A DNA stretch of 64,000 nucleotides from Escherichia coli (GTDB lineage: Bacteria > Pseudomonadota > Gammaproteobacteria > Enterobacterales > Enterobacteriaceae): assembly GCF_051903065.1 (NCBI RefSeq), contig NZ_CP178438.1, one strand, 5' to 3'. The notes beneath the pieces were generated by a model that searched no databases, had not been told where the DNA came from, and saw only the letters and a program-made list of their open reading frames with translations. Position numbers and translations under genes: made by a program. Positions 20,118-25,501 of the stretch are shown here, piece by piece (position 1 is the stretch's first letter; each line of letters starts with the position of its first letter).

Positions 20118-20216
20118 ATATCTGTAATAAGAAATAGCCCTCGCCGCTTCCCTCTACAGGAATGGCGAAGGGCTGTCGGTTTCGACATGGTTGGCCATCG
20201 TATGATGGCCTTTTTT
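20118..20216 (+). ncRNA. sdhX: 3'UTR-derived small RNA SdhX (RybD) at the end of the sdh-suc transcript
   Basis: About 100 nt directly after the sucD stop with two stem-loops, the second a GC hairpin plus T-run terminator; position matches the described sucD 3'UTR sRNA. Confidence 0.5.
20193..20216 (+). terminator. Rho-independent terminator of sdhCDAB-sucABCD / sdhX
   Basis: Hairpin GGCCATC-GTAT-GATGGCC followed by TTTTTT. Confidence 0.75.
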
Positions 20217-20352
20217 ATGTCTTAAACGGTTAACCACGGTCGAAATCTGACTGCAGGCTTGACTGCATGACCACAACCACTGTGGATTGCCGCGACCGGT
20301 GATGCTGCCAACTTACTGATTTAGTGTATGATGGTGTTTTTGAGGTGCTCCA

Positions 20353-20628
20353 GTGGCTTCTGTTTCTATCAGCTGTCCCTCCTGTTCAGCTACTGACGGG
20401 GTGGTGCGTAACGGCAAAAGCACCGCCGGACATCAGCGCTATCTCTGCTCTCACTGCCGTAAAACATGGCAACTGCAGTTCACTTACACCGCTTCTCAAC
20501 CCGGTACGCACCAGAAAATCATTGATATGGCCATGAATGGCGTTGGATGCCGGGCAACAGCCCGCATTATGGGCGTTGGCCTCAACACGATTTTACGTCA
20601 CTTAAAAAACTCAGGCCGCAGTCGGTAA
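20353..20628 (+). CDS. insA: IS1 InsA (transposition inhibitor, N-terminal part of InsAB' transposase)
   Basis: 91-aa [25 protein letters not shown]... recognised IS1 InsA. Confidence 0.9.
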
Positions 20629-21050
20629 CCTCGCGCATACAGCCGGGCAGTGACGTCATCGTCTGCGCGGAAATGGACGAACAGTGGGGCTATGTCGGGG
20701 CTAAATCGCGCCAGCGCTGGCTGTTTTACGCGTATGACAGGCTCCGGAAGACGGTTGTTGCGCACGTATTCGGTGAACGCACTATGGCGACGCTGGGGCG
20801 TCTTATGAGCCTGCTGTCACCCTTTGACGTGGTGATATGGATGACGGATGGCTGGCCGCTGTATGAATCCCGCCTGAAGGGAAAGCTGCACGTAATCAGC
20901 AAGCGATATACGCAGCGAATTGAGCGGCATAACCTGAATCTGAGGCAGCACCTGGCACGGCTGGGACGGAAGTCGCTGTCGTTCTCAAAATCGGTGGAGC
21001 TGCATGACAAAGTCATCGGGCATTATCTGAACATAAAACACTATCAATAA
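20547..21050 (+). CDS. insB: IS1 InsB reading frame (expressed as InsAB' via -1 frameshift)
   Basis: Overlapping -1 frame ORF; slippery A-run (TTAAAAAACTC) at about 20603 in the insA/insB overlap. Confidence 0.85.
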
Positions 21051-21560
21051 GTTGGAGTCATTACCGCCGCGACCGACCGCAAGCCACGAATAAGAACGAC
21101 GGCGAATTTCGAATCGTTACCTGATGCACTGGCTTCCCAGCGTTTGACCGTAGCGTTAAGTAAATCAACAAAAGCGATGTTCACCGCTTTTCGTCAAGTC
21201 GTGCCATTTGTCAGCCAGGATCGGGTCTTTACCCCGGATATTGCAGCATCGCAAAAATTCTTAGATGGATATGCTATAAATCAAAAATAAAATCTTTGTT
21301 GATTGTTTATCATAATATCCACAGATATGATAAATGATATCAATTTAATAATTTTCACTTAATGTGATTCCGGATAATTCGAAAGGCGCTGTGCTTTTCG
21401 GATTATTATTATCTGATTAAGATATTTGTCACGCCAGCCTTACTGGTTTATAAATGTCAATCATGATTCTTATAAATTATTTATTGCTGCTTTGGTTACC
21501 ATTACTTCGTAATAAGTAATGTATTTTTGATGGTTTAAACTATTTTTAAGGGACGGCATT

Positions 21561-22153
21561 ATGCGAGGGAAAATACCTAAAACGGAACTGCTGGTGACTT
21601 TTGAGGTCGTCGCACGTCATGAAAGTTATACCAGAGCGGCAGAGGAGTTAGCGTTAACCCAAAGTGCAGTATTCAGACAAGTAAGTGCGCTGGAGGAATT
21701 TTTACGTACTCCGTTATTTTCACACTCTAAAAAACGCATTTTTCTTAATGATACAGGGAAGTATTACCTGGGGATAGTAAAAGAAACATTAAATAAGCTG
21801 GAACGCGATACCAATACCATTATGACCTGGCAGCCTACGGTTCAGGTTATTGAACTTGCCGTTAATCCTACTTTTAGTACCCACTGGTTGATCCCAAATT
21901 TACATGAATTCACAAAGTTACATCCCGATATTATTGTTAATATTCATTCTTTAGCTAATAACGGCGATTTTCTTAATCGGGAGTACGATGCTGTCATTAT
22001 GCGCGAAAATTTTTGCGCGCCCTGGGCGGAAGTAGAATATCTCTTTGATGAGGAGATTTTGCCGGTATGCAGCGGCAGTTTGCTTGCAATGTCCGATCAA
22101 AAGCTGTCAGTGGCAGAACTGCTTACTGAGTTACCGCTTCTGCATCAAAGCAC
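21561..22153 (+). pseudogene. LysR-family transcriptional regulator gene, 3'-truncated by IS903-type element
   Basis: N-terminal LysR-type HTH (ESYTRAAEELALTQSAVFRQVSALEE) and start of substrate-binding domain; frame runs straight into the IS inverted repeat at 22154; about 200 codons of an expected roughly 300. Confidence 0.7.
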
Positions 22154-23210
22154 GGCTTTGTTGAATAAATCAGATTTCGGGTAAGTCTCCCCCGTAGCGG
22201 GTTGTGTTTTCAGGCAATACGCACGCTTTCAGGCATACCTGCTTTCGTCATTTTGTTCAGCGCTCGTACCAGGGCCATAGCCTCTGCAACCTGACCATCG
22301 TAGTCACGCAGTGTCAGTGAACCCCCGAACAGCTGTTTTACCCGGTACATCGCCGTTTCCGCTATCGAGCGACGGTTGTAATCTGTTGTCCATTTCCACC
22401 GCGCATTACTCCCGGTCATTCGCTGATTAGCCACTGCACGGTTACGGTCTGCATATTCACCGGGCCAGTAACCCGCACCTTTTCGGGGAGGGATAAGCGC
22501 GCTGATTTTCTTACGCCGCAGTTCATCGTGACATAGCCGGGTATCGTAAGCGCCATCGGCGGCGGCTGACCTGATTTTCCGGTGGGTTTGCCGGATTAAC
22601 CCGGGGAAGGCCTCTGAGTCCGTAACGTTGTTCAGCGACAGGTCAGCGCAGATGATTTCATGTGTTTTACTGTCAACGGCGAGATGCAGCTTACGCCAGA
22701 TACGGCGGCGTTCCTGGCCATGCTTTTTGACTTTCCACTCGCCTTCACCGAAGACCTTCAGCCCGGTGGAATCAATTACCAGGTGTGCGATTTCACCCCG
22801 GGTGGGCGTTTTGAAACTGACATTAACCGACTTTGCCCGCCTGCTGACACAGCTGTAATCCGGGCAGCGTAGCGGAACGTTCATCAGAGAAAAAATGGAA
22901 TCAATAAAGCCCTGCGCAGCGCGCAGGGTCAGCCTGAATACGCGTTTAATGACCAGCACAGTCGTGATGGCAAGGTCAGAATAGCGCTGAGGTCTGCCTC
23001 GTGAAGAAGGTGTTGCTGACTCATACCAGGCCTGAATAGCTTCATCATCCAGCCAGAAAGTTATGGAGCCACGGTTGATGAGGGCTTTATTGTAGGTGGG
23101 CCAGTTGGTGATTTTGAACTTTTGCTTTGCCACGGAACGGTCTGCGTTGTCGGGAAGATACGTGATCTGATCCTTCAACTCAGCAAAAGTTCGATTTATT
23201 CAACAAAGCC
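22154..23210 (-). mobile_element. IS903-type insertion sequence (IS5 family), 1057 bp, no target-site duplication
   Basis: 18-bp terminal inverted repeats GGCTTTGTTGAATAAATC at both ends; single transposase ORF; flanks TCAAAGCAC vs ATTTATCAG do not match. Confidence 0.85.
22210..23133 (-). CDS. IS903-type transposase (DDE, IS5 family)
   Basis: ORF ending ...KAGMPESVRIA, recognised as IS903 transposase; start placed at the GTG giving 307 aa (longest ORF extends to 23178). Confidence 0.85.
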   Translation of the reverse strand: MAKQKFKITNWPTYNKALINRGSITFWLDDEAIQAWYESATPSSRGRPQRYSDLAITTVLVIKRVFRLTLRAAQGFIDSIFSLMNVPLRCPDYSCVSRRAKSVNVSFKTPTRGEIAHLVIDSTGLKVFGEGEWKVKKHGQERRRIWRKLHLAVDSKTHEIICADLSLNNVTDSEAFPGLIRQTHRKIRSAAADGAYDTRLCHDELRRKKISALIPPRKGAGYWPGEYADRNRAVANQRMTGSNARWKWTTDYNRRSIAETAMYRVKQLFGGSLTLRDYDGQVAEAMALVRALNKMTKAGMPESVRIA

Positions 23211-23581
23211 ATTTATCAGGCGAAAGTGGCCTCTGTTCACTCAGAAACAATCACTCCCGGTAAGTCATACCTGTTTCATCGATACATTTAAGTGATTATT
23301 ACTAATGAAACAATAACATAACGGGCTTACGGTCGGTGCTCATAAAGGCAACAATCAATTAACTTTGATAAAAATATGTTATGTAAAATAGCAACAAATT
23401 GGCTACTCTAATCAATTGGTATTATAAAAAGTTGATTGGGCGGTTCTGTTAAATAAAACACTGGTTTTTTATCTATACCTTTTCATTGTAATAATTGTGT
23501 TGCATAAATATTTCACAATAAATTAACAATAAAATCACCAATGATCTATGGTTTATACATAATTAACATATTTGGTTGGTT

Positions 23582-23595
23582 TTGATATAAATCAA
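23582..23595. promoter_or_regulatory. FNR-consensus box in cydA upstream regulatory region
   Basis: Perfect TTGAT-N4-ATCAA (TTGATATAAATCAA) about 340 bp upstream of cydA in a long AT-rich leader. Confidence 0.5.
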
Positions 23596-23932
23596 TTTTT
23601 AATTCTTGAAAAAAATCTGCAAAACACGATAAATTGTCGTAGATCAAATTGGTGAGATCGTGACAATTTCGCTATAAATTGATCACTGTCGAAAAATGCA
23701 AATTTGCTCAATAAAAACCTGTTTATTGTAAGGATTTTGCGGCGTAATATAATTACGGGATCAATTTGGTTTATTCATTAACATATTTGTAACTTTTTTA
23801 TCATTGTCTTTTCCTCTTTTGATGAAATGGCAACGATAGAGGCGAGCAAATAATTTTGTATTGGGGCATGCGTGTGACCCTTTCTAACGGGGTTCACTCT
23901 CGGAGTCTTCATGCGATGAGCAAGGAGTCATG

Positions 23933-25501
23933 ATGTTAGATATAGTCGAACTGTCGCGCTTACAGTTTGCCTTGACCGCGATGTACCACTTCCTTTTTGT
24001 GCCACTGACGCTCGGTATGGCGTTCCTGCTGGCCATTATGGAAACGGTCTACGTCCTTTCCGGCAAACAGATTTATAAAGATATGACCAAGTTCTGGGGC
24101 AAGTTGTTTGGTATTAACTTTGCTCTGGGTGTGGCTACCGGTCTGACCATGGAGTTCCAGTTCGGGACTAACTGGTCTTACTATTCCCACTATGTAGGGG
24201 ATATCTTCGGTGCGCCGCTGGCAATCGAAGGTCTGATGGCCTTCTTCCTCGAATCCACCTTTGTAGGTCTGTTCTTCTTCGGTTGGGATCGTCTGGGTAA
24301 AGTTCAGCATATGTGTGTCACCTGGCTGGTGGCGCTCGGTTCAAACCTGTCCGCACTGTGGATTCTGGTTGCGAACGGCTGGATGCAAAACCCAATCGCG
24401 TCCGATTTCAACTTTGAAACTATGCGTATGGAGATGGTGAGCTTCTCCGAGCTGGTGCTTAACCCGGTTGCTCAGGTGAAATTCGTTCACACTGTAGCGT
24501 CTGGTTATGTGACTGGCGCGATGTTCATCCTCGGTATCAGCGCATGGTATATGCTGAAAGGTCGTGACTTCGCCTTCGCTAAACGCTCCTTTGCTATCGC
24601 TGCCAGCTTCGGTATGGCTGCCGTTCTGTCTGTTATTGTTCTGGGTGATGAATCTGGTTACGAAATGGGCGACGTGCAGAAAACCAAACTGGCTGCTATT
24701 GAAGCTGAGTGGGAAACGCAACCTGCGCCTGCTGCCTTTACTCTGTTCGGCATTCCTGATCAGGAAGAGGAGACGAACAAATTTGCGATCCAGATCCCTT
24801 ACGCGCTGGGCATCATTGCAACGCGTTCCGTGGATACTCCAGTTATCGGCCTGAAAGAACTGATGGTGCAGCATGAAGAACGCATTCGTAACGGGATGAA
24901 GGCGTACTCTCTGCTCGAGCAACTGCGTTCTGGTTCTACCGACCAGGCGGTTCGTGACCAGTTCAATAGCATGAAGAAAGACCTCGGTTACGGTCTGCTG
25001 CTGAAACGCTATACGCCAAACGTGGCTGATGCGACTGAAGCTCAGATTCAACAGGCAACCAAAGACTCCATCCCGCGTGTAGCGCCGCTGTACTTTGCGT
25101 TCCGTATCATGGTGGCGTGTGGCTTCCTGCTGCTGGCAATCATCGCGCTCTCTTTCTGGAGTGTCATCCGCAACCGCATTGGCGAGAAAAAATGGCTCCT
25201 GCGCGCCGCGCTGTACGGTATTCCGCTGCCGTGGATTGCTGTAGAAGCGGGCTGGTTCGTGGCTGAATATGGCCGCCAACCGTGGGCTATCGGTGAAGTG
25301 CTGCCGACAGCTGTGGCGAACTCGTCACTGACCGCAGGCGATCTCATCTTCTCAATGGTGCTGATTTGCGGCCTGTATACCCTGTTCCTGGTGGCAGAAT
25401 TGTTCTTAATGTTCAAGTTTGCACGCCTCGGCCCAAGCAGCCTGAAAACCGGTCGCTATCACTTTGAGCAGTCTTCCACGACTACTCAGCCGGCACGCTA
25501 A
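23933..25501 (+). CDS. cydA: Cytochrome bd-I ubiquinol oxidase subunit I
   Basis: Recognised CydA sequence; start placed at second Met ([12 protein letters not shown]). Confidence 0.97.

Follow-up and report, generated by a model that had tools for sequence, protein, structure and literature searches.

The window, by which is meant the whole 64-kb stretch of E. coli DNA that was analysed, carries the gene order sdhCDAB-sucABCD, IS1, a cut LysR-type regulator gene, IS903B, 720 bp of non-coding DNA, cydABX-ybgE and tol-pal. The IS1 (768 bp, positions 20298 to 21065, plus strand) is bracketed by the 9-bp duplication GCCGCGACC at 20289-20297 and 21066-21074, its boundaries being set against strain ECNB21-M121. 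It is a simple insertion and, because its 9-bp duplication is regular, it demonstrates that simple insertions in this stretch do show duplications, which makes it an internal contrast to the IS903B, which has none. The IS1 site is 180 bp past the sucD stop codon, and the insertion is missing from both ECNB21-M121 and the close relative XH990. It is also 80 bp beyond a segment (about 20118-20218, inside a 98.4% match to K-12) that aligns to the K-12 sRNA gene sdhX.

The second element is a complete IS903B (IS5 family, IS903 group) of 1057 bp on the minus strand at 22154 to 23210, and it is the single copy within the 64-kb window. Its left terminal inverted repeat is GGCTTTGTTGAATAAATC (22154-22171, plus strand) and its right terminal inverted repeat (23193-23210, plus strand) is the exact reverse complement of the left, so that the first-pass annotation of a 1057-bp element with perfect 18-bp inverted repeats was borne out with 18 of 18 positions matching. 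Inward of the repeats the complementarity declines (33 nt at 79%). The transposase ORF (22210-23178, minus strand) is uninterrupted and spans 969 nt, or 322 aa from a TTG start, while another record gives the same DNA an ATG start and 307 aa, the two starts being alternative choices of PGAP. The product covers the whole of the NCBIfam model NF033579 (IS5 family transposase, positions 1-289 of 289) with a score of 357 bits, where the cut-off of the model is 140 bits. PGAP labels it 'IS5-like element IS903B family transposase' under an accession common to other IS903B records. The element in the window is an intact, standard IS903B. IS903 itself was first known as the arms of Tn903.

What sets this copy apart is its surroundings. 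The 9 bp on its left are TCAAAGCAC (22145-22153, plus strand), which in intact genomes are followed by CCGTATTACTGG and the remainder of the LysR-type gene, and the 9 bp on its right are ATTTATCAG (23211-23219, plus strand), which in intact genomes are preceded by CGCTCATTTTTC. When the two 9-mers are compared directly only 3 of 9 positions agree, and the unequal flanks described in the first-pass annotation, TCAAAGCAC and ATTTATCAG, are real. That annotation had also allowed for a 9-bp duplication hidden by a sequencing error. No such duplication, hidden or shifted, is present, and an error of this kind is ruled out by the fact that both flanks are colinear with the reference genomes up to the very ends of the IS. 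The absence of a duplication is a property of the insertion event and not of the element. The IS903B of ECNB21-M121 is identical to that of the window over 1057 of 1057 positions, with 0 mismatches, and has an ordinary 9-bp duplication (CAATCCCCA). Plain IS903B copies elsewhere carried 9-bp duplications in all three cases examined (CAATCCCCA, CTCTCTGAG and AAAAACAGG), which marks the copy in the window as an exception.

The left junction falls inside the LysR-type regulator gene of the fumD-mal-glm cluster, of which the 5' 593 nt are retained (21561-22153, plus strand) and which is cut after nt 593 of 906. The residual ORF continues to 22184 inside the IS and encodes 198 native residues and 9 IS-encoded residues before a stop. 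Comparison with the intact protein indicates that residues 199-301 are lost, a total of 103 residues of the effector-binding domain, and the match to LysR-family profiles ends at about position 196 of 305. PGAP records the remnant as a pseudogene missing its C-terminus. The description of the gene as interrupted in frame had to be dropped as meaningless, since the 9 IS-encoded residues lead only to a stop and the rest of the protein is gone. Over its 198 native residues the truncated product is the same as the intact regulator, which means that the window holds the derived state. The same regulator gene is also damaged elsewhere in the species. In many other E. coli frameshifts have broken it into two ORFs, an N-terminal one of 195-229 aa and a C-terminal one of 74 aa, and the exact 74-aa product is on record on 41 contigs (the gene lies at 2501-2725 in each of loci L016 to L025). 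This suggests that the LysR-type regulator of the cluster has been inactivated recurrently and independently of IS elements.

The first-pass annotation had proposed a comparison with related genomes that lack the IS, and this comparison was informative. In XH990, whose interval is free of IS elements, the two flanks of the window IS lie 12,469 bp apart. In ECNB21-M121 the distance is 13,535 bp, the excess being accounted for by an unrelated IS903B with its 9-bp duplication, and the window flanks are 100% and 99.9% identical to those of that strain. The left flank (1054 bp) is present in 1127 of 5426 complete E. coli genomes, and the part of the right flank that is proximal to cydA is present in essentially all of them. 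A genome in which the two flanks were contiguous without the IS would have contradicted the first-pass annotation, but a synthetic query joining both flanks found none among the 5426. The locus is a chromosomal IS-associated deletion of 12,469 bp in one E. coli clone with an IS903B at the scar. The original proposal that the remainder of the LysR-type gene and the DNA between it and cydA had been removed is thus supported by the relatives, which hold 12,469 bp between the same flanks. Comparison with XH990 revealed no microhomology between the deletion breakpoints, which argues against slippage.

What was lost is the final 313 bp of the LysR-type regulator gene plus eleven complete genes, namely cobO/cobA, the mesaconase gene fumD (class I fumarase), a dicarboxylate/amino-acid (glutamate) symporter gene, a DUF4387 gene, an AtuA/DUF1446-family gene, the methylaspartate ammonia-lyase gene, the glutamate mutase genes glmE, glmL and glmS, and two hypothetical genes. 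A fumD-mal-glmESL cluster for glutamate fermentation by the methylaspartate pathway has been described in E. coli O157:H7 and other enterobacteria (PMC4682846). The cluster was found here between sucD and cydA in 1136 of 5426 complete E. coli genomes (21%), and a frequency of 26.5% of E. coli was given by Kronen & Berg 2015 (PMC4682846). K-12 carries a different gene set, mngRAB, at the same position.

Both junctions of the scar are shared by only two other genomes among the 5426 complete E. coli genomes, 23CRST027 and 23CRST031, both from Ecuador. Window positions 1-32295 are 100% identical to 23CRST027, which came from human faeces, save for one 47-bp difference that is taken up below, and the two sequences are still colinear at 60 kb. 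Neither sister genome is among the 60 best matches to the cluster, despite the near-100% rank that would be expected had they kept it. Given that the flanks are virtually identical to the top match, this indicates that the cluster is gone rather than moved. Three short-read contigs from other samples, each running from IS1 to IS903B, likewise hold the fusion ORF of the LysR-type gene and the IS (GCA_036912935.1, SRR27536171, and ERR7528868 together with three further samples), which shows that the left junction is real and that the clone has been sampled repeatedly. For the right junction, a junction-spanning ORF of 57 aa that would reveal it in draft assemblies is not on record.

It could be argued that there was no deletion at all, either because the assembly was mis-joined across a repeat or because the window represents an ancestral empty site into which the cluster was inserted in other strains. 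Repeats do cause mis-joins in general, and K-12 does have mngRAB here in place of the cluster. However, both junctions occur in two independent complete assemblies and the left one in three short-read contigs, which contradicts a mis-join. An empty site would not be expected to cut the LysR-type gene in mid-domain at codon 198, nor does this reading sit well with flanks that are 100% and 99.9% identical to those of a cluster-bearing relative. The reading is therefore considered highly improbable.

Other strains show that IS903B has entered this cluster more than once. In ECNB21-M121 it lies within the AtuA-family gene (L001 11245-12301) as an identical copy in the opposite orientation with the duplication CAATCCCCA, and in GN25 a variant of 1063 bp (L003 2138-3200) lies in the hypothetical gene adjoining cydA with the duplication CTCTCTGAG. 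The fumD-mal-glm cluster thus seems to be a repeated target of IS903B. Derivation of the window IS from the ECNB21-M121 copy was considered and rejected, as that copy is inverted and neither of its flanks matches.

The one difference between the window and its sisters concerns the right end of the IS. Both sister genomes, 23CRST027 and 23CRST031, repeat the final 47 bp of the IS once more (GATCTGATCC...CAACAAAGCC) between the element and ATTTATCAG, whereas the window goes directly from the IS to ATTTATCAG. In 23CRST027 the composite lies at L002 6823-6916, which corresponds to window positions 23164-23210 plus 47 bp. The extra 47 bp begin with the palindromic 9-mer GATCTGATC, which holds two Dam sites and lies 47 bp from the right terminus of IS903. 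Composites of an IS plus 47 bp also occur at loci L013, L014, L015 and L026 to L030, and the junction was counted in 18 records of E. coli and in 379 of plasmids, the latter mostly from Klebsiella. One other type of plasmid has the 47-bp module after the left end of an IS903-type element. Flanks could be read for six composites, and in one of these, on a plasmid of strain G5, a 9-bp duplication surrounds the 1104-bp unit (GAGCAATAA on both sides), whereas the flanks of the other five are unrelated. The possibility that the 47-bp repeat is an artefact of assembly graphs with k = 47 was considered and is unlikely, because the same junction recurs in these 18 and 379 records from many laboratories and because the duplication on the one plasmid brackets the entire 1104-bp unit. 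Given this recurrence, a purely local error of assembly does not account for the repeat in the sister genomes. A search of the literature for IS903 in connection with 47 bp found nothing relevant.

An IS at a deletion junction without a target-site duplication can arise by three routes, namely adjacent deletion, recombination of two direct copies, and a proposed one-step capture at a break (PMC11708052). That the IS was involved in the deletion is indicated by its position exactly at the junction and by a lineage in which each sister genome has 19-20 IS903B places. The reading that we put first, with about an even chance of being correct, is that the IS903B transposase itself produced the deletion, by intramolecular replicative transposition of the adjacent-deletion type. 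An IS903B would have inserted in or beside the cluster, one of its ends would then have attacked a second site on the same chromosome, and the DNA between the two sites would have left as a circle, with a single IS staying behind between two unrelated 9-bp flanks. In the preferred variant the attacked site would have been inside a second IS903B copy upstream of cydA, which would account for the additional 47-bp IS end of the sister pair. However, the window itself does not have that end, so that later loss or an assembly collapse must be assumed in this variant. Adjacent deletions by IS903 have been reported to be common and to proceed via the cointegrate pathway (PMC11708052). The transposase route is favoured because it is one step shorter than a pair of insertions plus a recombination, because the sisters' structure of an IS plus 47 bp of a second end is unobtainable by recombining two standard copies, and because five of the six assessable composites have no target duplication.

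The main competitor is RecA-dependent recombination between two direct IS903B copies, one in the LysR-type gene and one upstream of cydA, by which 12.5 kb would have been excised and one hybrid IS left behind. This predicts exactly what the window holds, a clean 1057-bp IS with unrelated flanks, and it is named, with one other route, as a frequent reason for an absent duplication (PMC11708052). The 19-20 IS903B places of the lineage, and the independent hits on the cluster in ECNB21-M121 and GN25, make an ancestor with two copies plausible, and the sisters' partial second IS end of 47 bp hints at a former second copy. On the other hand three events would be needed (two insertions and one recombination), neither of the single-insertion ancestors was found among the 5426 complete genomes or in JGI metagenome contigs, and recombination alone does not yield the IS plus 47 bp of sisters that are otherwise identical. 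We regard it as possible but rather unlikely. Because the end product is identical, adjacent deletion and IS-IS recombination are separable only by their intermediates, which are predicted to carry the junctions TTCAACAAAGCCTCAAAGCACCCGTATTACTGG (IS in the LysR-type gene, with duplication) and CGCTCATTTTTCATTTATCAGGGCTTTGTTGAA (IS upstream of cydA, with duplication). Junction searches of the 5426 complete E. coli genomes turned up no genome with an IS903B at one site and not the other, neither predicted junction was matched exactly in JGI metagenome contigs, and the 136-aa IS-LysR fusion ORF predicted for an intermediate is not on record. The recorded 74-aa C-terminal LysR ORF was considered as a trace of an intermediate and rejected, as it comes from the frameshift alleles. 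This lack of intermediates is weak evidence, given that the clone has been seen in only a handful of samples. It is nonetheless compatible with a one-step event, in which a new IS903B would have been captured at a double-strand break as the 12.5-kb deletion formed, with no staggered cut of the target. Such a capture was proposed for an element of the IS5 family (IS903 subgroup) in E. coli C, where an IS was reported amid a large deletion with no duplication and no earlier IS at the site (PMC11708052). However, the mechanism is hypothetical and its authors grant that adjacent deletion is still possible in their case (PMC11708052), the missing intermediates count for little with so few samples of the clone, and the extra 47-bp end would stay unexplained. 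One-step capture is for these reasons judged improbable here.

The composites also allow a broader version of the transposase reading, which we consider unlikely though somewhat less so than one-step capture. In this version there would be a self-targeting hot spot, with the ends of IS903-type elements repeatedly joining GATCTGATC in another IS903 copy, and the deletion upstream of cydA would be one instance of an IS903B attacking its neighbour. The IS903B in the LysR-type gene would have attacked a second IS903B upstream of cydA, with loss of the intervening DNA, and the 1057-bp form of the window would have arisen by later collapse of the 47-bp tandem repeat or by its collapse in assembly. 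Such joining would produce the contrast that is seen, with unrelated flanks around five of six composites and duplications around all three plain copies. A search of E. coli for a nested IS903-in-IS903 at GATCTGATC gave no match, and the self-targeting reading rests on a small sample of six composites. If it were true, hundreds of enterobacterial plasmids would carry the same kind of duplication-less scar. If the composite does mark a preferred IS-into-IS target, it would aid the reading of IS903B-bounded rearrangements on plasmids of Klebsiella and E. coli.

On the right side of the scar, cydA (cytochrome bd-I subunit I) is intact (23933-25501, plus strand) and is followed by cydB, cydX and ybgE. 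Its start is at 23930 if the first ATG is used or at 23933 in the PGAP annotation, in agreement with the earlier estimate that the IS end is about 720 bp upstream of cydA. The retained upstream region (23211-23929, plus strand) is AT-rich, with up to 80% A+T. It contains two conserved FNR-type boxes with the same spacing as in K-12, a perfect TTGAT-N4-ATCAA at 23582-23595 and a second box at 23634-23647. Counted upstream from the cydA start, their distances are 344.5 and 292.5 bp in the window, against 341.5 bp (likewise a perfect box) and 289.5 bp in K-12. An FNR site has been placed at -53.5 relative to the cydAB promoter (PMC3688515). From this position and the spacing of the boxes, the P1 promoter is predicted to lie near 23642, where the 5' leader would begin. 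Some 430 bp separate this predicted P1 from the IS end at 23210, farther upstream, and both FNR boxes are kept. The right junction had been assigned to the non-coding leader of cydA, but it is not in the leader, which is predicted to start only about 430 bp downstream of it. In intact genomes the corresponding position falls in the intergenic region between divergent genes, 83 bp upstream of a hypothetical gene.

With the FNR boxes, the predicted P1 and about 430 bp upstream of P1 retained, cydAB probably keeps its normal control and the deletion probably has little or no effect on it. No outward promoter was detected on the plus strand in the IS end facing cydA by a consensus scan, which is a weak test, and an Rfam scan of the window from 19.5 to 24.5 kb gave no family at threshold. 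ArcA and H-NS are known to act on the cydA upstream region in K-12 (PMC3798270). Similarity of the window to K-12 upstream of cydA begins only at 23557, 373 bp before the start codon, at 84% identity, and farther upstream the sequences of cluster-bearing and mngRAB-bearing E. coli differ. To judge by this divergence, the distal cydAB control region known from K-12 may differ in part between the two genome types. Since the known oxygen-control elements of cydAB are kept, changed expression of cytochrome bd would be possible but is not to be expected.

A further region of the window lies beside ybhC, at 59367-64000. It contains a truncated tyrosine-recombinase gene (59367-60137, minus strand), an IS481-family transposase gene (60241-61281), and then genes for a hypothetical protein, a DUF6056 protein, a family-2 glycosyltransferase and a bactoprenol glucosyl transferase, the names being those of the 23CRST027 annotation. 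It resembles the decayed remains of a prophage that carries genes for O-antigen modification.

The deletion upstream of cydA is an ordinary, textbook IS-associated deletion. The element and the lost cluster have already been described, the cut regulator and the IS are already flagged in the public annotation, and nothing about the event is new in kind. Its consequence is that the clone has lost the methylaspartate pathway together with its regulator. It adds one more case in which a growing number of IS903B copies (19-20 places) wears away accessory metabolism, here in a commensal or clinical E. coli clone.

Comparison with known systems places each part of the locus. The element matches IS903/IS903B in its length of 1057 bp, its perfect 18-bp inverted repeats GGCTTTGTTGAATAAATC and its one DDE transposase gene, and differs only in that the window copy has no 9-bp duplication. 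The deleted interval matches the published cluster (PMC4682846) in its LysR-type regulator, CobA, FumD, GltP-type transporter, DUF1446/AtuA-family gene, Mal and GlmESL, the difference being that the clone of the window keeps only the first two thirds of the regulator gene. Deletions between direct IS repeats, as in classical genome reduction, for example in Shigella and further IS-rich lineages, have the same end product and likewise occur in a genome rich in the element, here IS903B. However, no ancestor with two copies was found for this locus, and the 47-bp end of the sister genomes is not a simple product of recombination. Under the preferred transposase reading the locus resembles the adjacent deletions of IS903 (PMC11708052) and those of IS150 in the Lenski long-term lines, which share with the window a single IS at the junction, no duplication, a contiguous loss and no microhomology, although here the pathway is deduced from the end product rather than observed from an ancestor carrying the IS at one end.
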